From positions 70,940 to 134,939 of IMG/VR virus record IMGVR_UViG_3300045988_120282: a DNA stretch of 64,000 nucleotides. One strand, 5' to 3'. This DNA is from a virus. The notes under the pieces are model-generated. The model saw nothing but the letters and a program-made list of their open reading frames with translations. It was not told the DNA's origin and did not search any database. A program made the position numbers and the translations under genes. Shown here piece after piece: positions 17,873-63,149 of this stretch (its first letter is position 1; every line of letters begins with the position of its first letter).

Positions 17873-18823
17873 ATGGCAGCAACACAGTTTGAAGTTATTA
17901 AAACAGCAAACAATAATAACGCAGAAGAACCTGAAGCAAAGATCAAAAGACGTAAGGACGGAAATCCTAAATGGACTCGATCTAATAAACAAAAAGGCGT
18001 ATCATCTTTAGTGTATCCAATTAAGAACAAAGAAAAATTTGCAGCCTTTAATGCATATTTTAGAGACCAGATTGATAAATCGTACACAGAGTACAAACGA
18101 TATGTAGCTGCCAGAAACAATCTTTTGGTTGCAGTTGGAAACAATACAGCATATCGTATCTCTGATATCGTCAGACTCAAATGGGGCGATTTATTAAACG
18201 ATAAGACTCGTAAGCAGGAAAAGAAAACAAAGAAATTCAGAACTGTATACTTTAACGATTTGGTAACTGAAGCAGTGGATATTTTCTTTGAAGCTGTTGC
18301 AGGAACTAAATATGATGTCAAGATTGATGGCGAAGTGCCAATGGATGATTATGTTTTTGGAACATGTAAGTCTGGATCAGGACACATGACTGAAGCAAAT
18401 GCTTTGGATTTTGTTAAAAAAGGTGCTAAAGCAGTTGGAATTGAGGACAATATTGGTACGCATACATTACGAAAGAACTTTGTGTATTGGACACTTGTCG
18501 ATCATAAAGATGATCAGAACGTATTGTATACACTTATGAGATTATTGAATCATAGTAGCCCTGCAATGACATTTCTGTATGCAACAATCACAGAGGAAGA
18601 AACTCATGTATTGTTTGATGATATTGCGCAGACATACAAGGAAATTATCAGTGGGGCTTTTAACGGATTGAAGGAAAATGTTGTTAATGTGAGTTATGAT
18701 AGAGTTATGGAGATTATCAAGTTTGCTTATAAGACTGGCAAAGATGATGCAGATCAAGATGATAGAGTACATGAAGATAATATGCAGGCATTAGAAGAGT
18801 TATTGGAAGGAGTAATTGTATGA
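17873..18823 (+). CDS. tyrosine recombinase / phage integrase family protein
   Basis: Catalytic signature present: box I AYRISDIVRLKWGDL (Arg), GTHTLRKNF (His-x-x-Arg), LLNHSSPAMTFLYA (His ... Tyr). Confidence 0.8.
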   Translation: MAATQFEVIKTANNNNAEEPEAKIKRRKDGNPKWTRSNKQKGVSSLVYPIKNKEKFAAFNAYFRDQIDKSYTEYKRYVAARNNLLVAVGNNTAYRISDIVRLKWGDLLNDKTRKQEKKTKKFRTVYFNDLVTEAVDIFFEAVAGTKYDVKIDGEVPMDDYVFGTCKSGSGHMTEANALDFVKKGAKAVGIEDNIGTHTLRKNFVYWTLVDHKDDQNVLYTLMRLLNHSSPAMTFLYATITEEETHVLFDDIAQTYKEIISGAFNGLKENVVNVSYDRVMEIIKFAYKTGKDDADQDDRVHEDNMQALEELLEGVIV

Positions 18824-19577: not shown

Positions 19578-19898
19578 ATGAAGATAAATACGATTAGACA
19601 AAATAAGGAAGAAAAGAAAGCAAACCAGAATCTTATGTGGATTTCAGCCGAGATTCCGCCACTAAAACCAGATAATGCATCACGTTATATGAGATATAAA
19701 ACATATCCCGTTATTGTGGATTACAAATATAATGATGGATGTGTGGACGAAGTGCTTGATTTTTGTGACTATGATTTTGAAGAAAAGAAATGGAAACTGG
19801 ATAAGCCTCATAAAGTTAGACAGTATTTCCCCCTTCCAAGTAAGCACAAAGTAAAGTGTTCGAACAAAAAGAGAACATCTGTTCGAAAAATATCTTGA
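19578..19898 (+). CDS. hypothetical basic protein
   Basis: ORF with RBS TAGGAGAATTTTGT. Confidence 0.5.
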   Translation: MKINTIRQNKEEKKANQNLMWISAEIPPLKPDNASRYMRYKTYPVIVDYKYNDGCVDEVLDFCDYDFEEKKWKLDKPHKVRQYFPLPSKHKVKCSNKKRTSVRKIS

Positions 19899-19969
19899 TT
19901 TTGTTCTATGGTAGCATTATAATAAGAAATGTAGAGATTCTTTGTTCACAATAAAAATTAACTTTCTTT

Positions 19970-20007
19970 CTTGCACCTATTGACAGGGTGCAAAAAGTAT
20001 GGTATAT
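19970..20007 (+). promoter_or_regulatory. promoter with palindromic operator (copy 1 of 3): TTGCACC-TATTGACAG-GGTGCAA ... TGgTATATT
   Basis: -35 TTGACA 19979-19984, 17-nt spacer, extended -10 TGgTATATT 19999-20007; inverted repeat TTGCACC / GGTGCAA brackets the -35; about 55 nt nearly identical to 62425-62480. Confidence 0.6.
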
Positions 20008-20057
20008 TTAATTCATGAAAATAAAAAATGCAACTGGGGAAAGTTGAGGGACGTAAA

Positions 20058-20507
20058 ATGAACGGATATACTAACAAAGAAAGAAAAGGAAACGATAACA
20101 GAAAAAGAAAAGAATATGTATATGGCAAATATCAAAATCCTCAAGTTTGGGGAATATATTTTGCAGATTTGCCGAAAATTGAAGGTAGTCACATCTTGCA
20201 TGGGAAAAGACCAGTCATCGTATATTCTAATAATATTTGTAATAATACAAGCACTGAGATTAACGTGTATCCAATTACAAAAAAATTAAGGAACTGGATA
20301 CCGACACATGTGACCATTTATCCAAATACCAGTAATGGATTAAAAATGGTATCACAGGTGTATTTAGAGCAAGGAAGAACAATTCCAAAGAATAATCTTT
20401 TAGAGTATTGGGGAAGAATATCTGATCTATCTTTAATGTTAAAAATAGGGCATGGCATTTTAATACAAAACGGCATGTTATCGTACATGAATGCAATGGC
20501 ATCCTAG
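20058..20507 (+). CDS. PemK/MazF-fold protein (putative toxin-like endoribonuclease fold)
   Basis: VWGIYFADLPKIEGSHILHGKRPVIVYSNNICNNTSTEINVYPITKK...HVTI...MVSQVYLEQGRTIPKNNL follows the PemK/MazF consensus (G-i-v-f-g-sE-gk-RP-lV-snd---tv-v-PiT); start placed at ATG 20058 behind RBS GAGGGA. Confidence 0.6.
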   Translation: MNGYTNKERKGNDNRKRKEYVYGKYQNPQVWGIYFADLPKIEGSHILHGKRPVIVYSNNICNNTSTEINVYPITKKLRNWIPTHVTIYPNTSNGLKMVSQVYLEQGRTIPKNNLLEYWGRISDLSLMLKIGHGILIQNGMLSYMNAMAS

Positions 20508-20521
20508 AAATGGAGAATGTT

Positions 20522-21538
20522 ATGAATAATAAAGAATTGATACAAAATTATATAGATTCTCACGTATCAGAATCACGTCGCCCAACATGGAATTGGTTAT
20601 TAGATTCTGATATTGCGGACGACAATGAATCTGGGTTAACGTATGCACCAGGCACAATCCAAAAGGCTATATTATCAGATACTAGAGGTAAAAAAACCAA
20701 AAGTATGAATTCTATTAAAAAAAGATATGACCAGCTTGTGAAATTGTATACTTATGCATATGAACAAAATTACATTAAATATAATCCATTTGTTAATGAT
20801 AAATTTATAAACTTGCAATTAGCAGTTGATATATATTTTTCAAATAGAGTTAATGTTAATTATGTTACGCCAGATAAAATAAATGCGTTTATTTCGAATC
20901 TGATGTCGTGCAATGCATCAGCCGATACCAAATTGAATACTAGATTTCACATTGTGAGTTTATATAATGGGATAAATGGAAAGGAGTTAAGAAATCTAAA
21001 ATTCTCGGATATTAATCAAAATGATTTAACAATTTTTGGGAAACCAGTCTCCAAAGATTTTATCGAGACATTGAATGAATATAAATTGAAAATGGGAGAT
21101 ACGAATATATATGATGATTTTGTATTAATACCACGAAAAAAATGTAATAATATAGAAGAATATAAAGCAGAGCAAAAGAGGATATATAATAATGTGCAGT
21201 CTCAATTAGAATTAACAGGCAATACTTTATCTTATGAAAAATTGACAACCATTGATGTTATTAATTCTGGTTTTATACAATATTTAAAATCTAAAATGGA
21301 TATCAAGGCAATTGCAGATTTATATTATATTAAATCAAAAGAAGGAATTGCACGATCTGTAATCGCACGTCAATTTAGTGATATTGCAATTGATTTTTAT
21401 TATAATTATTATATATCATATAGAATAAAGAAGAAACAATTTAGTGATCGTCAAACGGTAATCGGTAAAAGTATTGGTTACCTATATAAAGATGAGGACT
21501 ATAAGAATTATCGTGTACATCAAATCATGGCAGAATAA
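20522..21538 (+). CDS. hypothetical protein with tyrosine-recombinase-like N-terminal/core-binding features but degenerate catalytic motifs
   Basis: AYEQNYIKYNPFVN resembles the core-binding domain end and GINGKELRNLKFSDI resembles box I; no H-x-x-R or His/Tyr box recognisable, so functional call is weak. Confidence 0.3.
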   Translation: MNNKELIQNYIDSHVSESRRPTWNWLLDSDIADDNESGLTYAPGTIQKAILSDTRGKKTKSMNSIKKRYDQLVKLYTYAYEQNYIKYNPFVNDKFINLQLAVDIYFSNRVNVNYVTPDKINAFISNLMSCNASADTKLNTRFHIVSLYNGINGKELRNLKFSDINQNDLTIFGKPVSKDFIETLNEYKLKMGDTNIYDDFVLIPRKKCNNIEEYKAEQKRIYNNVQSQLELTGNTLSYEKLTTIDVINSGFIQYLKSKMDIKAIADLYYIKSKEGIARSVIARQFSDIAIDFYYNYYISYRIKKKQFSDRQTVIGKSIGYLYKDEDYKNYRVHQIMAE

Positions 21539-21552
21539 AGGAAGGTATATGT

Positions 21553-21918
21553 ATGGACAATCAAATATTAGAAATGTTAGCAGCGAATCAATCAAATCAA
21601 ATGCATATTGATGTACTTGATTTACACTCATCAGAAATGTCATCGTGGTTTCTGAGTGAATATAAGATTCGAGCAGATGATAGAAAGATGAAGATCTATG
21701 GCAAAGATAAAGATCTTTCATATCATTGGATCGAATTTATTCAAGATGAGAATTTGTTCTCTCATATTAGGCAGGACGACATATTTGACATAATCAAATG
21801 CCTGCAATTTACATACAAAGAGAGATACAATGTTGGAATAAAAATACAGACAATAAAAAAGAAAGCAGAAGTCTTTGGTAAAACTTCTACTTTCACACAA
21901 ACTAAAAATTTCAACTAA
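21553..21918 (+). CDS. hypothetical protein
   Basis: ORF with RBS AAGGAAGG. Confidence 0.5.
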   Translation: MDNQILEMLAANQSNQMHIDVLDLHSSEMSSWFLSEYKIRADDRKMKIYGKDKDLSYHWIEFIQDENLFSHIRQDDIFDIIKCLQFTYKERYNVGIKIQTIKKKAEVFGKTSTFTQTKNFN

Positions 21919-21994
21919 ACAAATCATAGATAACAAAAAAAGATTTTTTGAATCTACCGTGTTGGCAGCACGATAGAAAATCGAATTTGATATT

Positions 21995-22070
21995 TAGAAT
22001 TGTTTAATCTGAAAGGATAATAATATCCTTAAAATCATTATAACAATTCTAAACATGTTCGTCAACATGA
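21995..22070. repeat. cluster of nested palindromes
   Basis: TAGAATTGTT 21995-22004 and AACAATTCTA 22042-22051 (perfect 10-nt IR); inner AGGATA-ATAA-TATCCT 22014-22029; CATGTT-CGTC-AACATG 22053-22068. Confidence 0.45.
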
Positions 22071-33536: not shown

Positions 33537-33630
33537 ACTGGCATTTTATGACTCTATAAAACACAATATATAGTGATTATCCAATTATTGAACCACTATA
33601 TATAGTTGTATAAAGTGCCAGTCATGGAAA
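33537..33630. repeat. large nested inverted repeat upstream of tRNA
   Basis: Outer arms AACTGGCATTTTATGAC / ATAAAGTGCCAGTCAT; inner arms CACAATATATAGTG / CACTATATATAGTTGT. Confidence 0.45.
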
Positions 33631-33763
33631 CATAGCTCAGTTGGTAGAGCAGGCAATACATAAACATTCATTTTTCTACCTCCATATAAGTATTTTTATT
33701 TATTTACATTTAATTTTCATCACATATAAATTGCCGACACAGGTTCGATTCCTGTTGTTTCCA
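33626..33763 (+). tRNA. tRNA gene interrupted by an ~67-nt AT-rich insertion in the anticodon loop (anticodon region CAT?)
   Basis: 5' half GGAAACA-TA-GCTC-AGTTGGTA-GAGC-A-GGCAA (33626-33656) and 3' half TTGCC-GAC-ACAGG-TTCGATT-CCTGT-TGTTTCC-A (33731-33763) form perfect acceptor, D, anticodon and T stems; loop begins TACATAA; no encoded CCA. Confidence 0.5.
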
Positions 33764-33803: not shown

Positions 33804-34007
33804 TTAATCGTTTGGTATGACCTCGATAACATCTTCAACTTTGCAATCAAGATATAAGCAAATTTTGTCAATGTTTTCGAGACTGATATACTGATTCTTT
33901 GCCATCTTGGCAATTGTACCAGACCCCATATTTAAAGCGGTTCGTAAATCAGATTTTGTCATACCCTTTTTCGCTAAAGTTACGAAAAGCGGTTTATAAC
34001 TTATCAT
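33804..34007 (-). CDS. XRE-family helix-turn-helix transcriptional repressor (Cro/CI-like)
   Basis: MTKSDLRTALNMGSGTIAKMAKNQYISLENIDKICLYLDCKVEDVIEV is a canonical XRE HTH; RBS GGAGGT 7 nt before ATG 34007; only minus-strand gene, divergent from an operator-bearing promoter. Confidence 0.8.
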   Translation of the reverse strand: MISYKPLFVTLAKKGMTKSDLRTALNMGSGTIAKMAKNQYISLENIDKICLYLDCKVEDVIEVIPND

Positions 34008-34083
34008 ATGATATACCTCCACATCTATATTGTAACATATTATATACAGGATGTAAAATAAAATATTCAAGAAGTTGAAGATT

Positions 34084-34117
34084 TTGCATTGACACTATGT
34101 GCAAGAAGTGGTATATT
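34084..34117 (+). promoter_or_regulatory. promoter/operator copy 3: TTGCA-TTGACA-ctatg-TGCAA ... TGgTATATT
   Basis: -35 TTGACA 34089-34094, 17-nt spacer, extended -10 TGgTATATT; TTGCA / TGCAA inverted repeat around the -35; divergent to the XRE gene. Confidence 0.55.
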
Positions 34118-34173
34118 ATATTCAACAAATGAAAGGTAAACTTCAAGAAAATGAAATATGAAGGAGTGAGAAA

Positions 34174-34581
34174 ATGTCAAATAAAATTTACAGATATTAT
34201 CAACCAAACGATAAAGATACAAAAGACAATCATTCAGATTGCGTGATCAGAGCATTAACAAAAGTGCTTGATAAAGAATGGTTAACAACATTTGATGATT
34301 TGTTACCATACGCAAGGGATATGCAGTGTATGCCATCAGAGCGAAAATGTTACGAAGAATATTTATTCGATAATGGGTTTGCTTATCAAGGTATTAGCAA
34401 CCGAAAAGGATCTAAACGACCAACAGTTGAAAGTTTTGCAAAAGATCATAAACAAGGCAATTACTTGGTAAATGTTGCGAATCATGTAGTTGCAATTTCA
34501 GACGGTTGTTATTACGACACATGGGATTCTGGAGATTGTTGCTTGTATGGATATTACTATAAGGAAGAAGGAGAGAAATAA
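34174..34581 (+). CDS. papain-like (C39-like) cysteine peptidase candidate
   Basis: Cys in NHSDCVIRAL, His in NHVVAISDG and Asp in YYDTWDSGD in the order expected for C39-type triad. Confidence 0.45.
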   Translation: MSNKIYRYYQPNDKDTKDNHSDCVIRALTKVLDKEWLTTFDDLLPYARDMQCMPSERKCYEEYLFDNGFAYQGISNRKGSKRPTVESFAKDHKQGNYLVNVANHVVAISDGCYYDTWDSGDCCLYGYYYKEEGEK

Positions 34582-35169: not shown

Positions 35170-35277
35170 CACGATTCTCATGGATGGAGAAGGCGTAACA
35201 GTAACATTTTATACTATAACGACGAAAGTGTTTTGGCGTGGAGAGAGATTGAAGAGTTTAAAAGTGAGGGGAAATAA

Positions 35278-35790
35278 ATGAGTACAACAAAAACAATTGA
35301 TATTTCAGTGCTGCCAGAGGCAGAACAGGATCTAATAAAAGCATTATTTGATAAATGTTGTGAAAGAGCGAAACCAAAAGAAAAAACTAATTCAGGGTCT
35401 AAAGTTTGGAAACCAAAATACGGTGAAAGATATCATTACATTGATGGTAGCGGATCTATTTATAGTGCAATATGGTTTAATAGCATTGTCGATAACGGTA
35501 GATGGGTATTAGGCAACGTATTTAAAACACAAGAAGAAGCAGTATTTGCAAGAAAGAAAAGAAAAGTAGAAGTTGAACTTGAGCGGTATGCAAAGGAACA
35601 CAATGGCACAGAATTTGCCAATCGTTGTTATTGTATTCGATGTGAAGAAGACGGAAAAAGACTTCTTTGCGATACATGGGCTACAACAAAAATACAGGGT
35701 ACAGTTATGTTTACATCAAAAGATGTTTTAGTTGATGCAATTGAAGCAATCGGAAGAGACAGAATCATTAAATACATCTTTGGAGCATAA
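35278..35790 (+). CDS. hypothetical protein (tandem paralog 1)
   Basis: Shares TIDIS-L-EA-Q-L-K-LF---CER and GNVFKT blocks with 35807-36340. Confidence 0.55.
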   Translation: MSTTKTIDISVLPEAEQDLIKALFDKCCERAKPKEKTNSGSKVWKPKYGERYHYIDGSGSIYSAIWFNSIVDNGRWVLGNVFKTQEEAVFARKKRKVEVELERYAKEHNGTEFANRCYCIRCEEDGKRLLCDTWATTKIQGTVMFTSKDVLVDAIEAIGRDRIIKYIFGA

Positions 35791-35806
35791 AGTGAGGTGA
35801 AAGAAA

Positions 35807-36340
35807 ATGGGTACAGAAAAGACAATTGATATTTCAAAATTATCTGAAGCACAACAGAATTTATTCAAATCATTATTTGAGCAATTTTGTGAAAGATCAG
35901 AAAAAGAAGAAAAAGCTAATTCATGTGGTTTAAAGAATGGGGATACGTATTATTTCATCACTGATGATGGGCATATCTGTATGGCAAAATGGCAAGGTAG
36001 AGCATCAGATTTTAGAAGATTAGCTTTAGGTAATGTATTTAAGACTGAAAAGGATACAGAGTTTGCTATTGAAAAGCAGAAGGTTAGGGTTGAATTGCAA
36101 ATATATGCTGATGAACATAATGATCCTGATCAAGAAGAATGGGATGGAGCGAATTTTCATTATTATATTGGATATGATGTGACTGAGGATGATTTGGCAA
36201 AAATCCCTGCCGTACAACTTAGACGCCTAAATGAGGTATATTTTTCTTCTAAAGAAATCGCTGAGGATGCCGCCAACAAGGTTGGAGCAAAACGCATCAT
36301 AAAATATCTATTTGATGTTGATTGTGAGTTGGATGAATAG
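35807..36340 (+). CDS. hypothetical protein (tandem paralog 2)
   Basis: See 35278-35790. Confidence 0.55.
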   Translation: MGTEKTIDISKLSEAQQNLFKSLFEQFCERSEKEEKANSCGLKNGDTYYFITDDGHICMAKWQGRASDFRRLALGNVFKTEKDTEFAIEKQKVRVELQIYADEHNDPDQEEWDGANFHYYIGYDVTEDDLAKIPAVQLRRLNEVYFSSKEIAEDAANKVGAKRIIKYLFDVDCELDE

Positions 36341-41258: not shown

Positions 41259-42044
41259 ATGTCAAGGAAAAATACAAGAGAAATTGAACTTGCTTTTAGT
41301 AAACACAGAGATCCAGATTGGGAAGCCGATGTTGAAATTTATGGTAAAAGAGTTTTAAAAACAGTTCGTGGTATTTGTCTTGGAGATGAATGGACGGAAA
41401 TTGATTCATTGAAAAATAAAGATTGGATTGAGCTGTCAGATATGTTTGGTAATTTTGACAATCATAATCCCTATTTCAATCATAACCCACAATATGTTTT
41501 ATTGGATAAATTCTCTATAACATCTCCTGCGATATTGTGTAGCAATGAAATAGTTATGAAAAATGGCAAAGTTTTGAGTGTTAATAATATATCAGCAAAT
41601 CTATCAGGCGAAAAGGAGGTATACAAGATTTATTCAAATACGAAATATGATGATTATACATATTATGATGAATCAAAAAATTTAGTATTTGAATTAGCAT
41701 CAAAAGATGTTGATAAGATAATCCGATTTATGAGAGATTTTATGGATGTATTGCGTGACAGTAAGTTAACAAAGTATAGAAATAGTAGTTTTTTATGGAG
41801 ACTATTTAACACTCTTGATATGCCATATTTTAAACAAACATATTCCATGAATGATTTGAAAAAATATACAAACACATTTAGATCCGAGGTTTGTGGTCAA
41901 CTAAAAGAAACTATTCCTAATTTTAAATATACTGGAGTTCCAATGGGCGGGTATATTGAAAGATATTTTGAATTAAGCTATGTAGAGGAAGTACAAAAAT
42001 TCATTAAAGAACAGGAGGATAAAAAATGTGAAGAAATTAAATGA
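41259..42044 (+). CDS. hypothetical protein
   Basis: ORF with RBS TAGGAGTG. Confidence 0.5.
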   Translation: MSRKNTREIELAFSKHRDPDWEADVEIYGKRVLKTVRGICLGDEWTEIDSLKNKDWIELSDMFGNFDNHNPYFNHNPQYVLLDKFSITSPAILCSNEIVMKNGKVLSVNNISANLSGEKEVYKIYSNTKYDDYTYYDESKNLVFELASKDVDKIIRFMRDFMDVLRDSKLTKYRNSSFLWRLFNTLDMPYFKQTYSMNDLKKYTNTFRSEVCGQLKETIPNFKYTGVPMGGYIERYFELSYVEEVQKFIKEQEDKKCEEIK

Positions 42045-42561
42045 TGAACAGCGAAAGCTGATTGAAGATAATTATTCTTTAATTTGGCATTTACATGAAA
42101 AATATTTTACAAAGTTTACAGATTTTGATACATATATGGATCTTGGTCGTATGGCAATTTGTAAAGCAGCATTAAAATGGGACGAGTCTAAAGGAACTTT
42201 TGGTACATATCTCTTCTGGGTATTACGTTCAGAAGTGAATCAATATTATACAAAATGGCACAGACCAACAGAAAAAATGAATAGGAATGCTGAATCGTTA
42301 GATACGCCATTGGCAGGATATGAACCAGAAGATGATATTACAATCGGAACAACACTGATGAGTGGGGATAACGTAGAAGATGAGGTGCTTACAAAGGTAC
42401 ATTTTCAAAATGAGTTTGATAAATTGGCACCGAGAAATAAAAAGATTATCACGTTAAAGCAGAAAGGTTTAACACAAAGACAAATTGCAAGTCAGCTTGG
42501 AATCACTCATCAGTGGGTTAGTCAAAATATTGTACAGTTTAAGAAAGCATTATGTGGATAA
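42028..42561 (+). CDS. sigma-70-family RNA polymerase sigma factor (region 2 + region 4)
   Basis: GTG start behind AGGAGG; LIWHLHEKYF..YMDLGRMAICKAALKWDESKGTFGTYLFWVLRSEV (region 2) and LTQRQIASQLGITHQWVSQNIVQFKKAL (region 4 HTH). Confidence 0.8.
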   Translation: MKKLNDEQRKLIEDNYSLIWHLHEKYFTKFTDFDTYMDLGRMAICKAALKWDESKGTFGTYLFWVLRSEVNQYYTKWHRPTEKMNRNAESLDTPLAGYEPEDDITIGTTLMSGDNVEDEVLTKVHFQNEFDKLAPRNKKIITLKQKGLTQRQIASQLGITHQWVSQNIVQFKKALCG

Positions 42562-48603: not shown

Positions 48604-49143
48604 ATGTCGTTGAAATTAAATGACGAACAGAGAAAATTGGTAGAACAAAATCATAATTTGATTTACTCTGCTATGACAAAATGCGGTATCCGCAGACAAG
48701 ATTTTGATGACTATTATGGATTCGCTGCTATTGGGTTGTGTAAGGCAGCAATTGATTATGATGAATCCAAAGCTAAATCATTCTCTACATATGCATATAA
48801 ATGTATGCAAAAAGAAATTATAGCATATACTCGATGGAGATTTGCAGATAAAAGAGATGAACGACTTACCTTATCGTACAATCAGTTAATGAATGATTTA
48901 GATGAAGACGAAAAAGAATATTCTTTTTTGCTAGCTGATAAAAAAAATAATGAAAAAAAATTAATTTTCTTTTTGTGTTTTGATGAGCAAATGCGAATAC
49001 TAAATAATAAGGACAGGTTAATTATTAATTTAAAGGCAAAAGGGTATACGAACGAAGAAATAGGAAATACCCTTGGTGTTACATATCAAGCAATTCAATA
49101 TCAATTGAAAAAAATTAAAAATAAATTAATCCCATCCTTATAA
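48604..49143 (+). CDS. sigma-70-family sigma factor (paralog of 42028-42561)
   Basis: N-term MSLKLNDEQRKLVEQNHNLIY parallels MKKLNDEQRKLIEDNYSLIW; region 4 HTH YTNEEIGNTLGVTYQAIQYQLKKIKNKL. Confidence 0.75.
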   Translation: MSLKLNDEQRKLVEQNHNLIYSAMTKCGIRRQDFDDYYGFAAIGLCKAAIDYDESKAKSFSTYAYKCMQKEIIAYTRWRFADKRDERLTLSYNQLMNDLDEDEKEYSFLLADKKNNEKKLIFFLCFDEQMRILNNKDRLIINLKAKGYTNEEIGNTLGVTYQAIQYQLKKIKNKLIPSL

Positions 49144-56936: not shown

Positions 56937-59900
56937 GTGAGCAGTTCATTACATACACATTCGCATTATTCATTGTTAGATGGATATGCATTACCTGAAG
57001 AAAACTTACAAAGAGCAGAAGAGATAGGACTAAAAGCCCTGGCTATCACAGAACATGGCAATGAGTATAGTTGGTGCTATTATGATAAGCTTCATGAGAA
57101 ATATCCAAGTGTTAAATTGATTTTTGGAGTTGAATTTTATGAATGCTTTGATATGACAGAACAGAATAAGGATAGCAAATATTTCCATTTAATTGTATTA
57201 GCAAAGAATGAGAATGGTAGAAAAGCAATTAATCAATTGGTAACTGATTCAAATTTTCATGGATTTTACTATAAGCCACGAATTGATCTGAATGCGTTGA
57301 AACCATATGCTAAGGATCTGGTTGTGAGTAGTGCTTGTTTAGCATCTAAACTTGCCAGAGAGCCAGATTATCAGAAATGTGTTAAATATGTTCGTGAATA
57401 CAAAGAGATTTTTCCACATTTTTATTTAGAAATGCAGTCACATTCACATCAGGATCAAATGGTATATAATCAGAAAATCTTACAGCTTTCAGTAGACACT
57501 AATACACCATACATTATCACAACTGATAGTCACGCTGCTAGAAAAGAAGATCTGTATTATCAGAACTGGCATGTAAAGCTTGCTCACGATACTGAAACCG
57601 CAGCAGAAATTTATGAAGGATGTTATTTACAATCTGACGATGAAATTCATGCAATTATGGATAACCAAATTGGAGAAGACGCAGTAACTAAAGGACTTGA
57701 AGAAACTGATAGGATTGCAGATTTAATTGATGAAATTCACATGCCATTTCAGGCACCTCAGTTACCATCTTTCCCATTACCAGAAGGATTTGAAGATAAT
57801 TATTCTTATTTAAAGTATCTGATTGATACAGGGTGGGTAAAACGAGGATTCGATAAATTACCAGAAGATGAGCAGAAACTCAGAAAAGAAAGAATTGATT
57901 ATGAGTTAGATATTATTCATTCAATGGGATTCGATGGATACTTCTTGATTGTTTGGGATTTTATCAATTTTGCAAGAGAAAATGGTATTCCAATTGGTGC
58001 TGGTCGAGGTAGTTGTGCAGGTAGTTTGGTGTGTTACACGATTACAATTACAGACTTAGATCCTATCAAATATGGACTGATTTTTGAAAGATTTTTAAAT
58101 CCAGAACGAATTTCAATGCCAGATACAGATACAGATGTTGGTACACGAGATGAGATTATCCAATATTTGATCGATAAGTATGGCGAAAACAGAGTATGCC
58201 AGATTATCAATTTCAGTTTTATTACTCCAATTGTGGCAATCAAAGATGTTGGCAAGGTTTTAGGGTTCAATTATCACGAGATGGACAAACTAAGTAAAAA
58301 ATTTGTATATGACACGATTGAAGAATCTTTATGGAATAACAGAGATTTAGCAGAGAATCCAAGATATGAAGAGCTTTTTGACGTTGCATCTCATCTTGCA
58401 GGTAGAGTAAAAACAGTATCTTCTCATGCAGGTGGTGTTGGAATTGTAGATACAGATATTAGCGATTATATGGCAATGAAACTTGGAACTGATGGAGAAC
58501 ACGTCATCCAAGTAGATAAACGTATCGTTGAAGAGATTGGGATTATTAAATTTGATATTTTGGGTGTTGCTACATTGAACACTGTAAAAGAAGCCGAAAT
58601 TGACGCAGGGTTAACTGAGTTTGATGTAAATATTAACAATCCAAAGTTTGAAATGGATAAAGGATCATATGAATTATTGCGTAGTGCAATGACGAATGGT
58701 GTTTTCCAGGTCGAAAGTGCTGGTATGAAGGATTTGCTGGTTAGGTTACAAGTCTCAAACATGGAAGAGTTGGCAGCTGTATTAGCACTGTATAGACCAG
58801 ATGCAATGGATGTTTTAGAAGAATTCATTGAGTATAAACATCATCCAGAGAAAATTGCATATATCCATCCAGATATGGAGCCAATCTTAAAGGAAACGTA
58901 TGGATGTATGATTTATCAGGAGCAATTACTTGATATTGTTCGTAAATTTGGTGGTCGAAGTTATGGAGGAGCTGACTTATTCCGTAAGGCGATTGGTAAG
59001 AAGAATATTGAACTTGTAAAGTCTGAATCTAAAAAGCTTTATTACGAGATTATTGAGAATGGATACCCCGAAGAAATTGCAAAACAGATTAGCGAGACAT
59101 TATCCCAAAAAGGGGGATACTTATTCAACAAAAGTCATGCGTACTCCTACGCTGTATTATGCTTACAAACAGCGTTTTTAAAGAAACATTATGCGTTGTG
59201 TTTTTTTAAGGCATTATTGAATCGCAATAAAGATAAGGCAGGAATGGTAAATAAATATATTCTTGATGCTAAGGCGTTTAAGATTCAAGTGTTACCACCA
59301 AACTTAAACAAATCAATGATGAATTTCAGTATTGACGATGTGTATATATTGTTTGGATTATCGGCTATCAGTGGCATTGGAGAAAAAATTGCAAAGGTAA
59401 TTCTTGAAGACCGTGATAAAAATGGTAAATTCATAGGATTTGAAAACTTTTGCGAACGTATTAATCCAAGTAAATCACAGGTTATTCAGTTGATCAAAGC
59501 AGGTGCAATTCCAACAAAGAATAAGCGTAAAACTTTAATTCAGTATTTGAAATCTATGTATCAGCCAACAACATTCAAGCCAGTTGCAAAAGCACCGAGT
59601 TACAAACAATTACTTATTAAATGGGATATTGACGCTGAAGATTACCGTATAGGTGAGAAGAAATATGATTACGACAAAGATGCAATATTGAAAGTTTATA
59701 ACGATAAAAAGTATGAATTGTACAAAGATAAGGAAAAAGAACGATTTCAGAAATTTATCGCACAGAATCAAAAATATCTTGAGAATGAAGATTTTTGGGA
59801 ATTTGAAGCATTGCAAATCTTTATCAACGATAACCCATTTGATCAGGCATACAAGTATATGTCAAAACAATTTCAAGATGTTGAAAATGGAGATGATTGT

Positions 59901-60170
59901 ACTGTGGTTGCAGTGATCGCTAAAGTTGATAAAAAGAAAGACAAAAATAAAAAGACATTTGCGTATGTGAATTTATATTCTAGTTTTGGATTGACTGAGG
60001 CAATCGTCTGGCATTCGCAATTAAAAGAATATGAAGATATGATTACCAAAGGAAATCAGATTGCGATGTTATGCAGAAAAGATTCAGAAGAGAAGGTTAT
60101 CGCAAAGAAAATTAAACCATATAAACAATGGCTAGAAGATATTAAGAAAGTGAAGGGGGTTGTCGCCTAA
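56937..60170 (+). CDS. dnaE: DNA polymerase III alpha subunit (DnaE-type)
   Basis: PHP N-terminus LHTHSHYSLLDGYALPEE; length and collinear Pol III alpha architecture. Confidence 0.9.
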   Translation: MSSSLHTHSHYSLLDGYALPEENLQRAEEIGLKALAITEHGNEYSWCYYDKLHEKYPSVKLIFGVEFYECFDMTEQNKDSKYFHLIVLAKNENGRKAINQLVTDSNFHGFYYKPRIDLNALKPYAKDLVVSSACLASKLAREPDYQKCVKYVREYKEIFPHFYLEMQSHSHQDQMVYNQKILQLSVDTNTPYIITTDSHAARKEDLYYQNWHVKLAHDTETAAEIYEGCYLQSDDEIHAIMDNQIGEDAVTKGLEETDRIADLIDEIHMPFQAPQLPSFPLPEGFEDNYSYLKYLIDTGWVKRGFDKLPEDEQKLRKERIDYELDIIHSMGFDGYFLIVWDFINFARENGIPIGAGRGSCAGSLVCYTITITDLDPIKYGLIFERFLNPERISMPDTDTDVGTRDEIIQYLIDKYGENRVCQIINFSFITPIVAIKDVGKVLGFNYHEMDKLSKKFVYDTIEESLWNNRDLAENPRYEELFDVASHLAGRVKTVSSHAGGVGIVDTDISDYMAMKLGTDGEHVIQVDKRIVEEIGIIKFDILGVATLNTVKEAEIDAGLTEFDVNINNPKFEMDKGSYELLRSAMTNGVFQVESAGMKDLLVRLQVSNMEELAAVLALYRPDAMDVLEEFIEYKHHPEKIAYIHPDMEPILKETYGCMIYQEQLLDIVRKFGGRSYGGADLFRKAIGKKNIELVKSESKKLYYEIIENGYPEEIAKQISETLSQKGGYLFNKSHAYSYAVLCLQTAFLKKHYALCFFKALLNRNKDKAGMVNKYILDAKAFKIQVLPPNLNKSMMNFSIDDVYILFGLSAISGIGEKIAKVILEDRDKNGKFIGFENFCERINPSKSQVIQLIKAGAIPTKNKRKTLIQYLKSMYQPTTFKPVAKAPSYKQLLIKWDIDAEDYRIGEKKYDYDKDAILKVYNDKKYELYKDKEKERFQKFIAQNQKYLENEDFWEFEALQIFINDNPFDQAYKYMSKQFQDVENGDDCTVVAVIAKVDKKKDKNKKTFAYVNLYSSFGLTEAIVWHSQLKEYEDMITKGNQIAMLCRKDSEEKVIAKKIKPYKQWLEDIKKVKGVVA

Positions 60171-62433
60171 AGTGGTGGATAGTACAAAAGAATATGAGTT
60201 TGAGATTGTCCCATTATATCAGATTTATTATAATGAAGAATCTTTATTTGGGATTTACACATTCTGTACAGCAGAAGATTTACCAGAATGTAAACCATAT
60301 AATAATAATGATTTTGATGACTTATCCGATAAAAAAATGAATAAATGTGGCAAATTGGTTGGTAATATGCAGGAGTTGTATTTAGGAACGAAATATAAGG
60401 TTAAAGCCAATATGACATATTCTAAGAAATACAATGAATACCAATATAAACCACTTTCTATAGTTGCTGAAGTTCCTAAAACTTTTGAAGCACAAAAGGT
60501 ATTTTTAAAAACACAGACGAACGCAGTGATCGCAGATCAGTTAATTGCGAAATATCCTAATGTTGTTGAAGATGTAATGAATGGTCAGTTAGAGATGATT
60601 GACCATTCAGAAATCAAAGGACTAGGAGATAAAACTTGGAAGAAGCTTAGAGATAAAATTATTAAAAACTATGTGATTTCTGATATTGTTGTAATGTTGC
60701 AACCATATGGGGTTACGTTACCAACGATTGAAAGATTATTGAAATCCGAACCTAATCCAAGTGTTTTAAAAAAACAGATTGAACAAAATCCATATATACT
60801 AACTAGGGTAAAGGGCATGGGCTTTAAACGAGTTGATGATATTGCGCTCAAATTAAAACCAGAATTGCGATGCTCAAATCAACGGTTAAACGCATTTATT
60901 TCTTACGACTTGCATCAAGTTGGTGATAATGATGGACATACATATGTGTATATCAAAAATTTAAGAAGCAATATTAGTAATGCAGCGTCTGAATGCTTAC
61001 CTATATTTGACGAATGGTTTGATGAAGAATCAGATAAAAAATTACCAAATTATTTATATACATCTGGAGATAAAATTGGTCTGAAATCGTATTATAAAAT
61101 TGAAATGGATATTTACGAATTTATTAAAGATATGGAGAAATATTCATTTGGAAATACAACAGATTACGAACCAATAACAGATAGTGAGATTAGTCAGACG
61201 ATTTCTGAAGTTGAAGATGAAGAAGGGTTTATGTTTTCAGAAGAACAAATTACAGGAGTTAACAAAGCATTAAATTGCCAAGTTGTGTTTATTTCTGGAG
61301 AAGCTGGAACTGGTAAAACAACAATTCTGAAACCAATTATTAAATGCTACCAAAAAAGAAATAATAGCATTGTTGCGTGTGCTTTATCTGCAAAAGCAGC
61401 CCAAAGAATTAAAGAAGCAACAGGCTTAGACTCACGGACTATTCATAGGTTACTTGTAGCAGAAGGTATTGATAGTTTTTGTTATAACCAAGATAACCCA
61501 TTACCTGCTGATGTAGTAATCATGGATGAAAGTAGCATGACAAATGCGAGCCTTTTCTATAATTTTTTATTGGCAATTCGACCAGGAACACGATTAATTT
61601 TTTGTGGTGACTATATGCAGTTGCCACCGATTGGATTTGGTAATATTTTCTCGGATCTGTTGAAAAAGAAAGGTTTAAATAGTGTACAGCTTACCAAACC
61701 GATGAGACAAGCAGAAAAATCTGGTATTTTAACGGATGCAAGAAAGATTCGCAGAGGGATTAATCCATTGGATAGCCCACAATTAAAAATTGTTCATGGT
61801 GAACTAAATGATATGTTTTATTTGTTCAGGAAGAATAGAGAATCATTGTTCAATATGGCAGTAAAGCAGTATATCAAATCTGTCAAAGAGGAAGGGCTTG
61901 ACAATGTTGTGATTATTTCTCCACGAAGAAGTAATTGTACGAACAGCACAGATGAATTGAACAAAGCAGTACAGAAAGAATTATTTGCTAGTAGTAACAA
62001 ACCATTTGTTGAATTCAAAGATCGTAAATACTATTTAGGAGATAAGGTATTACAGACTTCAAATGATTACGAGCGAGATGTATTCAATGGTGATATTGGA
62101 TACATTACAGAGATTGACAAAGAAAAAGAAATATGTTTGGTGTCTATGAATGCAAATATTGAAGAAAAGCTGATTGAATATTCTTTCGCTCAGTTAGGAC
62201 AACTGCAATTAGCATATGCATTAACCACGCATAAACTTCAAGGATCAGCTGCGCAAACTGTGATCGGTATTATTGACAATACACATTACAAATTGCTTGA
62301 TAACTGTATGTTATATACAATGTTGACACGAGCTAAGAAAAGATTTGCACTCCTTGCAGAGCCAGAAGCGTTTAAGAGATGTATTATGACAAATCATAAT
62401 AAGAGGCGCACTTGGTTAAGCCTAAAAAATTAA
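60160..62433 (+). CDS. RecD-like (SF1) DNA helicase
   Basis: Walker A VFISGEAGTGKTT, Walker B VVIMDESSM, motif VI YALTTHKLQGSAAQ; start uncertain (TTG 60160 or GTG 60172). Confidence 0.8.
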   Translation: MSPKVVDSTKEYEFEIVPLYQIYYNEESLFGIYTFCTAEDLPECKPYNNNDFDDLSDKKMNKCGKLVGNMQELYLGTKYKVKANMTYSKKYNEYQYKPLSIVAEVPKTFEAQKVFLKTQTNAVIADQLIAKYPNVVEDVMNGQLEMIDHSEIKGLGDKTWKKLRDKIIKNYVISDIVVMLQPYGVTLPTIERLLKSEPNPSVLKKQIEQNPYILTRVKGMGFKRVDDIALKLKPELRCSNQRLNAFISYDLHQVGDNDGHTYVYIKNLRSNISNAASECLPIFDEWFDEESDKKLPNYLYTSGDKIGLKSYYKIEMDIYEFIKDMEKYSFGNTTDYEPITDSEISQTISEVEDEEGFMFSEEQITGVNKALNCQVVFISGEAGTGKTTILKPIIKCYQKRNNSIVACALSAKAAQRIKEATGLDSRTIHRLLVAEGIDSFCYNQDNPLPADVVIMDESSMTNASLFYNFLLAIRPGTRLIFCGDYMQLPPIGFGNIFSDLLKKKGLNSVQLTKPMRQAEKSGILTDARKIRRGINPLDSPQLKIVHGELNDMFYLFRKNRESLFNMAVKQYIKSVKEEGLDNVVIISPRRSNCTNSTDELNKAVQKELFASSNKPFVEFKDRKYYLGDKVLQTSNDYERDVFNGDIGYITEIDKEKEICLVSMNANIEEKLIEYSFAQLGQLQLAYALTTHKLQGSAAQTVIGIIDNTHYKLLDNCMLYTMLTRAKKRFALLAEPEAFKRCIMTNHNKRRTWLSLKN

Positions 62434-62442
62434 CTTTATTCT

Positions 62443-62480
62443 TTGCACCTATTGACAGGGTGCAAGAAGTATGATAAGAT
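62443..62480 (+). promoter_or_regulatory. promoter/operator copy 2: TTGCACC-TATTGACAG-GGTGCAA ... TGaTAAGAT
   Basis: Near-identical to 19960-20000 over ~55 nt; -35 TTGACA 62452-62457. Confidence 0.55.
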
Positions 62481-62510
62481 ACCAATATGCTAAGGAAAGG
62501 AAATGTGAAA

Positions 62511-63149
62511 ATGAGAAAAAGATTTTTAATGAAAGTTGTCTCGTTTAGTTTTTTAGCAATGTGTTCGGGCTTTATGACTCACACGGTTAAAGCAGAGGAG
62601 CGACCCTCGGTAGAGGCTTCAACCTTATCAACAGAGACAACTGTTGCAGAAAATAAGCAAGGCAATGTGATTTCAGACAATCCAATCAGCCAAAGCGTTG
62701 CATTAAAAGATGTTCATGAGCATTATCAGAAATGTAAGAAAGCTGATGAAGAGCAAGCAAGACAGATTCGATTAGAAAAACTTCGAAAGAAACGATTGCG
62801 AATTAAACGACAGCGGCTGAAGCGAAAGCGAGAACTTGAAAAGAGTTCACTTGGAACATTTTTGATCACGGCATATTGTCCATGTTATGAATGTTCTGAA
62901 GGATATGGATCTAAGATTGCTTGGAATCATGCAGGGCATAAATTTGCTCGACCATATCATACGATTGCGGTTGATAAAAACATTATCCCTTATGGAACAA
63001 GAGTTAAGATTGAGGGATACGGTGACACAATCTTTGTGGCAGAAGATTGCGGAGGCAAAGTAAAAGGAATGCATGTAGACGTGTTCAAATCAACACATTC
63101 CGAAACAATAAATGTGCAACAGCACAGAAAAATATATGTAGTGAAGTAA
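62511..63149 (+). CDS. secreted 3D-domain (MltA/YuiC-like) cell-wall-binding/hydrolase protein
   Basis: Signal peptide MRKRFLMKVVSFSFLAMCSGFMTHTVKA; C-terminal ITAYCPCYECSEGYG...IAVDKNIIPYGTRVKIEGYGDTIFVAEDCGGKVKGMHVDVF is the 3D-domain signature. Confidence 0.7.
   Translation: MRKRFLMKVVSFSFLAMCSGFMTHTVKAEERPSVEASTLSTETTVAENKQGNVISDNPISQSVALKDVHEHYQKCKKADEEQARQIRLEKLRKKRLRIKRQRLKRKRELEKSSLGTFLITAYCPCYECSEGYGSKIAWNHAGHKFARPYHTIAVDKNIIPYGTRVKIEGYGDTIFVAEDCGGKVKGMHVDVFKSTHSETINVQQHRKIYVVK

Follow-up and report, generated by a model that had tools for sequence, protein, structure and literature searches.

Two copies of an operator-promoter cassette, 42 kb apart and directly oriented, occur in a 64-kb stretch of DNA from a large uncultured phage (IMG/VR record IMGVR_UViG_3300045988_120282, positions 70,940 to 134,939; hereafter the window, positions 1-64,000 numbered on the + strand). 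In each cassette an inverted repeat, or dyad, is centred on the -35 box of a near-consensus promoter. Copy 1 precedes an operon encoding a PemK/MazF-like protein and a 342-amino acid (aa) protein with a predicted tyrosine-recombinase fold, here called rec342, whereas copy 2 precedes the gene of a secreted 3D-domain protein. Based on sequence comparison among relatives, the best explanation, which we hold with moderate confidence, is that rec342 is an autoregulated, integrase-fold repressor that would act on copies 1 and 2 via lox-like dyads laid over the -35 box. The features concerned are as follows.

19945-21545, + strand: specificity module consisting of the operator-promoter, the PemK-like gene and rec342, with conserved flanks on both sides.
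19953-20008, + strand: copy 1, the operator-promoter cassette ahead of the PemK-like/rec342 operon, with an A/T tract (19953-19965), the dyad (19971-19993, extended arms at about 19966-19998), the -35 TTGACA (19980-19985), TG (20000-20001) and the -10 TATATT (20003-20008).
20058-20507, + strand: PemK/MazF-like gene, 149 aa (PF02452 PemK_toxin, E 1.7e-15; phrog_1936, E 2.8e-15).
20510-21538, + strand: rec342, 342 aa, tyrosine-recombinase fold (predicted model and a match to the PHROG integrase family phrog_1, E 1.8e-10).
62425-62480, + strand: copy 2, the same cassette ahead of the secreted 3D-domain gene, with the dyad (62443-62465), the -35 (62452-62457), TG (62472-62473) and the -10 TAAGAT (62475-62480).
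62511-63149, + strand: gene of the secreted 3D-domain protein, cell-wall-binding-like (Pfam 3D, E 4.4e-12), with a signal-peptide-like N-terminus.

The two cassettes form a 52-nt direct repeat (19953-20004 and 62425-62476) of 90% identity, with an exact 23-nt core, TTGCACCTATTGACAGGGTGCAA (TTGCACC-N9-GGTGCAA), at 19971-19993 and 62443-62465. None of 100 shuffles gave a match to this core within 3 mismatches, which bears out the near-identical cassette that the original prediction, made from the sequence of the window, had seen at two sites. That prediction had also put forward a palindrome scan: in the 64-kb window it recovers the exact core exactly twice, while the loose form TTGCA-N5-20-TGCAA is not above chance level (5 found, 3.0 expected). 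The half-site TTGCACC occurs nine times, against 5.3 expected, and four of the nine sit in the two operators.

In copies 1 and 2, the core dyad is centred on the G of the consensus -35. Dyad symmetry was scored as the number of complementary positions out of 18 about this G, with neighbouring centres as controls; both copies score 11/18, and the control mean for copy 1 is 4.7. The promoters consist of TTGACA, a 17-nt spacer and TGn followed by TATATT or TAAGAT. This geometry, including the TG-extended -10, had been predicted for three sites, and a scan for TTGACA-N16-18-TATAAT-like sequences agrees, as copies 1 and 2 and a third site, copy 3 (discussed below), are the three best + strand sigma-A-type promoters of the 64 kb. 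The window encodes two phage sigma factors, which suggests that phage-specific promoters transcribe most of it; because of these factors, copies 1-3 are probably among the few promoters of the region that are read by unmodified host polymerase. A weaker sigma-A-like promoter, TTGATT-17-TATAAT, lies at 19895-19923 (+), about 85 nt upstream of copy 1, and its surroundings are conserved in all lineages, unlike the adjoining operator. It could read through the operator, in which case bound repressor would be a roadblock.

Both promoters were recovered from about 45 IMG/VR contigs using conserved coding starts, and not the operator, as anchors. Homologues of rec342 (35-66% identity) are found in syntenic loci (L088-L094, L098, L198 and L200). 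In every lineage the dyad of the PemK-rec342 promoter has the G of the -35 TTGAC(A) as its centre, and its arms are unrelated between lineages. The operators fall into at least eight types:

A-type: TTGCACC-N9-GGTGCAA.
B- and C-type: ATTGnCAC-N9-GYGGCAAT.
D-type: ATCTGCTA-TTGAC-TAGAAGAT, with a 5-nt centre.
E-type, 15-7-15: ATATCTTTAAATGCT-ATTGACA-AGCAyATAAAGrTAT.
F-type, 11-5-11: TAAAAAACCTC-TTGAC-GAGAATTTTTA.
G-type, 13-11-13, with perfect 13-bp arms: ATTACCAATCCAA-N11-TTGGATTGGTAAT.
H-type: imperfect arms of about 16 nt (13/16 match) around TTGAC, seen at one 3D promoter only.

For 13 PemK and 3D promoters of types A-G, symmetry is 11-15/18, compared with control means of 4.5-5.0 and control maxima of 9-13. 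Two more 3D promoters, scored without a control, give 14/18 (H) and 11/18 (G-like); a G-like dyad is present at a 3D promoter in L202. Exact B-type and D-type dyads were searched for in IMG/VR, with no match.

The operator type is equal at the two promoters wherever these can be paired, namely for A, B, C and E. In all of the roughly 40 IMG/VR contigs whose PemK promoter is A-type, the 3D promoter is of this type too, the E-type occupies both promoters in four of four contigs (132849, 136879, 120021 and 3300029604_000307), the C-type does so on one contig (L097, L098) and the B-type in one sample, on separate contigs (L090, L095). Each genome has two to three operator copies. Among A-type relatives, sampled without bias towards the operator, the arms varied in 0/40 cases at the 3D promoter and in 1/45 per arm at the PemK promoter. 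The centre does vary, from TATTGACAG to CGTTGACAA or TATTGACAA, as do the flanks; the arms are unchanged in, for example, TTGCACC-CGTTGACAA-GGTGCAA. At the 3D locus, the E-type contig 132849 (L102) is 90-100% identical to the window on either side and 58-72% identical across 62412-62511 (about 100 nt), so that its E-type promoter is, as judged from the alignment, a clean swap of the cassette alone.

This comparative evidence supports a common trans-acting regulator for copies 1 and 2. The regulon proposed in the original prediction is retained to that extent, with the XRE protein removed as its regulator (see below), and the recent duplication or recombination that it invoked is replaced by a concerted, lineage-specific matching of both cassettes. 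Three relatives (L024, L033 and L066; IMG/VR contigs 117858, 125498 and 3300029316_000125) contain a third exact A-type operator-promoter copy, ahead of an unrelated 117-aa gene and after a long non-coding stretch, in a region that is absent from the window. The stretch homologous to the 3D-type cassette runs exactly from the dyad to about 10 nt past the -10.

The operator type tracks the PemK/rec342 module and not the XRE gene. Compared with the E-type locus L092, the window is 88-98% identical up to about 19.89 kb, 44-82% over about 19.9-21.54 kb and 92-100% from 21.556 kb on; given this sharp drop, the divergent block comprises exactly the operator-promoter, PemK and rec342. The most divergent protein is rec342, with 55-66% identity between types and 85% in the only type-sharing pair (L088, L098). 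PemK follows the module, with 68-89% identity between lineages. Its gene is the first of the copy 1 operon and is tightly coupled to rec342 (stop at 20507, start at 20510). Four other proteins were considered as specificity determinant and set aside, as p106, p121, p216 and a 316-aa integrase are 93%, 92%, 98% and 95% identical, respectively, between differently typed genomes (A-type and B-type in the case of the integrase). No antitoxin domain was found in either PemK neighbour, and p106 does not co-vary with PemK. The lineage-specific reader of the operators would thus be encoded in an exchangeable module that begins at copy 1, and is most likely rec342.

The rec342 family is tiny, with seven clusters in 5.8 billion proteins and five matches among 1.84 billion representatives. 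An AlphaFold2 model based on nine sequences reaches a predicted local distance difference test (pLDDT) score of 77 and a predicted template modelling (pTM) score of 0.66; an earlier model (seven sequences, pLDDT 58) was too poor and was set aside. The top matches of the nine-sequence model in both structure searches are all tyrosine recombinases, with Tn1549 Int, XerA and XerH among the Foldseek matches and YopR at rank 7. In the model, rec342 has the tyrosine-recombinase fold, comprising the CB and CAT domains. Inspection of the family alignments shows N/S/D/E, D and N in place of Arg-I, His-II and Arg-II. In Box I the segment is LYNG-I-(N/S/D)-x-x-(E)L-x-x-LKFS(D/E)I, without Arg (as inspected in the alignments and not structure-based), and the position of the HxxR motif reads D-V-I-N-SGF. 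Since Arg-His-Arg is replaced, recombinase chemistry has probably been lost. No match was obtained for rec342 in NCBIfam or PADLOC or by tblastn against phages, and BLASTP and hhalign detected no homology to YopP or to the integrase of the window.

Tyrosine-recombinase core sites such as loxP (13-8-13) and dif (11-6-11) have inverted arms around a short asymmetric centre, and the operators described here resemble them in their 7-15-bp inverted arms and in the fold of the presumed reader, and differ from them in that the catalytic Arg-His-Arg of this reader is, by inspection, absent and the centre is the -35 hexamer. By analogy, a rec342 dimer would clamp the two inverted arms, as a recombinase does on a lox or dif core, and the operator sizes (21-37 bp, compared with 34 bp for loxP) would fit such a clamp. 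With the -35 hexamer placed in the 'spacer' of the operator, bound rec342 would keep sigma region 4 off the -35, and because the promoters are near consensus, repression is more plausible than activation. We infer that rec342 would in this way repress its own operon, which comprises the PemK-like gene, rec342 itself and the genes that follow, together with the remote 3D promoter and, in some relatives, a third, accessory gene.

Integrase-fold repressors have been described in other phages. MrpR of SPbeta acts on repeated elements (SPBRE) at about 10 promoters with phage-specific motifs, and the co-option of tyrosine recombinases to act as transcription factors was suggested to be maybe more widespread than anticipated (PMC10516654). 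SroF is monomeric when bound to its asymmetric box of 24-26 bp (bioRxiv 10.1101/2025.11.27.690993). Recombinases that repress their own promoters also have a precedent, with the phage P4 integrase as an example cited in the latter work. MrpR (YopR) and SroF of SPbeta and Phi3T share with the present system, as far as the model and the alignments indicate, an integrase fold without recombinase chemistry. Common to both are also operators at a number of distant promoters in a large phage, that of the own operon among them, a link to MazF/MazE, antirepressor-type genes nearby and phage-specific operator motifs; in their case, non-cognate repressors do not cross-act. In contrast, they show no detectable sequence homology to rec342, and the integrases of S. 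aureus and Tn1549, XerA and XerH match rec342 just as well by fold. Their asymmetric, monomer-bound box differs from the -35-centred dyads (11-15/18) found here, which would imply a dimer, and SPbeta has about 10 sites compared with two to three per genome here. A PemK/MazF-like partner gene and phage-encoded sigma factors are found only here, and lysogeny is known only for MrpR/SroF. As rec342 has no detectable homology to these proteins and the operators are not asymmetric boxes, the rec342 system is, by these sequence comparisons, not a member of the MrpR/SroF family. We see about even chances that it represents a second family of dead tyrosine-recombinase-fold factors, sequence-unrelated to MrpR/SroF, that would bind as dimers to -35 dyads and, with a MazF-like partner, form a swappable immunity cassette of at least eight types, the remote operator being matched by cassette conversion.

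In its exchangeability the module resembles lambdoid CI/Cro immunity, where repressor and operators are likewise exchanged as a module with sharply defined mosaic borders, the repressor type is matched by the operators of two promoters that lie apart, and many types occur in similar genomes. The lambdoid repressor is a helix-turn-helix (HTH) protein and not an integrase-fold protein, and there are three tandem operators instead of one dyad per promoter at sites 42 kb apart. Unlike in lambdoid immunity, no divergent cro-like partner is present at the copy 1 locus.

The original prediction had included copy 3 as a third, shorter version of the repeat and had proposed the divergent XRE protein as the repressor and the palindrome as its operator. 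The features of this locus are:

34084-34117, + strand: copy 3, a strong sigma-A promoter with the -35 at 34089-34094, TG at 34109-34110 and the -10 at 34112-34117.
33804-34007, - strand: XRE/HTH_26 protein, 67 aa (HTH_26, E 1.4e-14), divergent from copy 3.
34057-34029, - strand: promoter of the XRE gene, TTTACA-17-TGtTACAAT.
34174-34581, + strand: first gene past copy 3, 135 aa (phrog_3754, unknown function, E 1.2e-24).

The divergent XRE-like gene is confirmed by the HTH_26 match and the divergent promoters. The arms of copy 3 are only TTGCA and TGCAA, with 11 nt between them versus 13 in copies 1 and 2; their centre is 3 nt off the one used by copies 1 and 2, and symmetry about the -35 G is 6/18, which is at control level. 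IMG/VR contains no match to the exact copy 3 sequence. Across about 50 relatives the arm positions change independently of each other; TTGTA..TGCAA is the most frequent form, TTGTA..TTCAA, TTGCA..TGTAA and TTATA..TGCAA are also seen, and the dyad is not conserved even where the XRE protein is identical. A TTGTA...TACAA form in L091 seemed promising at first as a compensatory change and fell once the 50 relatives and L098 were compared. Hence, the repeat holds for copies 1 and 2 and does not extend to copy 3, whose arms, spacing and centre differ; copy 3 was rejected as a third operator copy and is a separate strong promoter outside the operator family. The 11-mer GTGCAAGAAGT, common to copies 2 and 3, suggests a common promoter ancestry. 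It is also present in E-type genomes and therefore does not follow the operator type.

Copy 3 serves a block of function-unknown genes. The genes ascribed to the three promoters were correctly named for the PemK/MazF-like and secreted 3D proteins, while the C39-like peptidase proposed for copy 3 is a 135-aa protein that matches phrog_3754 only, with no match in Pfam, NCBIfam or PADLOC. A 119-nt direct repeat of 76% identity downstream of copy 3 (35276-35394 and 35805-35923) corresponds to the starts of adjacent paralogous genes (35278-35790 and 35807-36340).

The XRE protein is 91-100% identical in about 50 relatives of any operator type and 100% identical between the window (A-type), L091 (D-type) and contigs 132849 and 120021 (E-type). 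An identical protein thus spans A-, D- and E-type PemK promoters and, where 3D promoters were seen, types A and E. With wholly different dyads facing the same protein, covariation rules out XRE as the reader of copies 1 and 2. XRE may regulate copy 3 through another site. The motif ATATTCAA(G/C)AA is repeated in the intergenic region between XRE and copy 3 (34063-34080, 34115-34132 and 34138-34154); one of the repeats forms a small dyad, TTCAAGAAGTTGAA, halfway between the divergent -35 boxes, and another sits at the predicted start site of copy 3. It is speculation that these repeats are an XRE operator, and the candidate motif TATTCAASAA is not enriched across the window. The 3' end of the XRE gene adjoins a tRNA recognised by Rfam at 33626-33763 (+; 46 bits, E 5e-9) and not called by ARAGORN. 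Its acceptor, D and T arms are intact, and about 81 nt replace the 15-nt anticodon arm; it may be a tRNA gene that is disrupted or contains an intron. Several related genomes encode, at another place, a second XRE paralogue with 55% identity to the XRE protein of the window (L182-L189 and L196).

Several points weigh against rec342 as a dimeric repressor. The model is of moderate quality, and sequence searches gave no match in the PDB and no similarity to MrpR/SroF (BLASTP E 0.13; hhalign probability 0.3%). The loss of chemistry is read from Arg-I, His-II and Arg-II, with the catalytic Tyr left aside, and the dimer-on-dyad model would be an extrapolation from recombinases, SroF being monomeric. 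Since PemK co-varies like rec342, the two are inseparable on these data, and PemK or a PemK-rec342 complex could be the reader as well as rec342 alone. The relatives were compared as fragments of about 6-21 kb per locus of genomes of about 160 kb, so that a co-varying gene could sit elsewhere. Finally, two scans of 185,579 species-representative genomes found no relative and no prophage copy.

Alternatively, the module may be a toxin-antitoxin system in which the PemK-like protein is the toxin, rec342 a large DNA-binding antitoxin and their complex binds the operator with conditional cooperativity; maintenance or addiction would be primary, the second operator would co-opt the 3D-gene operon, and rec342 would still read DNA. 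As in MazEF/PemIK operons, a PemK-fold gene comes first and is tightly coupled to its partner, with which it co-varies as a pair, and a palindrome covers the promoter in the classical type II arrangement; several other toxin-antitoxin pairs lie nearby in relatives. Unlike in those operons, no MazE/PemI-type antitoxin accompanies the toxin gene, which stands first, the partner is a 342-aa integrase-fold protein, PADLOC gives no match, and a second and third operator at unrelated genes are atypical. We consider this reading unlikely. Still less probable is a different reader, either a host factor or a lineage-specific factor whose gene lies beyond the fragments compared, with the PemK/rec342 module hitch-hiking with copy 1. 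The restricted length of the fragments leaves room for such a factor, and the second XRE paralogue of some relatives could be a candidate, but this paralogue was found, among the matches listed, in at least nine contigs that are all A-type. Moreover, the breakpoints enclose exactly the operator, PemK and rec342, the 3D cassette was swapped alone in a near-identical background, and a host factor leaves eight operator types among very similar phages unexplained.

It is very improbable that the dyads are lox/dif-like sites of an active recombinase (rec342 or the 316-aa integrase) serving resolution, cassette mobility or excision, with the promoter overlap secondary. In favour of this, inverted arms of 7-15 bp that enclose an asymmetric centre of 5-11 bp do resemble recombinase core sites, the cassette is present in a third genomic context in some relatives, with homology starting exactly at the dyad, and it was cleanly swapped at the 3D promoter. 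However, rec342 lacks Arg-I, His-II and Arg-II by inspection, the intact integrase does not co-vary with the site type, recombination between direct sites at a distance of 42.5 kb would remove a quarter of the genome, and in every case a near-consensus promoter has its -35 at the centre, which speaks for a role in transcription. Hardly any weight remains for the 67-aa XRE protein binding TTGCA...TGCAA at all three promoters to control an accessory regulon. It is a genuine HTH_26 protein divergent from copy 3, and in the window copy 3 has TTGCA-N11-TGCAA and shares GTGCAAGAAGT with copy 2, yet the half-sites of copy 3 are spaced 2 bp differently and its dyad centre is shifted by 3 nt with respect to the -35, this dyad is unconserved in about 50 relatives with an identical or near-identical XRE, and dyads of types A, D and E all coexist with the same protein. 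This reading is largely refuted for copies 1 and 2.

The window has a GC content of 33%, with genes nearly all on one strand, among them NAD-salvage genes and the following:

17873-18823: 316-aa integrase.
42028-42561 and 48604-49143, + strand: two paralogous phage sigma-factor genes (Sigma70_r2 and r4 matches).
56937-60170: DnaE-type polymerase.
60160-62433: RecD2 helicase.

The similar 5' ends of the sigma-factor genes show up as direct repeats D2 and D8. Megablast found no close relative of the window among deposited phages and plasmids, while IMG/VR holds many near-identical contigs of 140-169 kb. A 689-aa DUF8224 protein was considered as a host pointer and dropped, its homologues being too widespread to inform.

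Just downstream of the module (equivalent to 22.8-24.6 kb of the window), relatives L088-L098 encode Bro-N/ANT and P22_AR_N antirepressor-type genes, in place of which the window has unrelated 151-aa and 437-aa genes; RelE/HTH, Phd/YoeB and HicAB pairs are scattered upstream in the same relatives. The region around the module is a hotspot of accessory and regulatory gene exchange. Past the 3D gene, relatives encode a NAD-dependent ligase, LemA, a Tad2-like gene and an ADP-ribosyl-glycohydrolase gene. On the minus strand, a near-consensus promoter (TTGACG-17-TGtTATAAT, 22065-22037) and a strong intrinsic terminator (21894-21861, a 15-bp stem and a T-run) predict an RNA of about 175 nt (21855-22065), antisense to the 3' end of the gene that directly follows rec342 (121 aa). 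Its predicted folding energy is -49.7 kcal/mol (z -6.75 versus shuffles), the region is 92-98% identical across lineages, and no Rfam family matches it.

The annotation of the repeat is corrected in that copies 1 and 2 are not under the control of the neighbouring XRE protein. The locus would be an apparently independent, sequence-unrelated case of a recombinase fold serving as a transcription factor, with a binding logic different from that of SroF: a palindrome, presumably read by a dimer, instead of an asymmetric box read by a monomer. With at least eight operator types and matched protein variants, it offers material on how the DNA specificity of recombinase-fold proteins evolves, and the same series may be usable for building orthogonal repressor/operator pairs.

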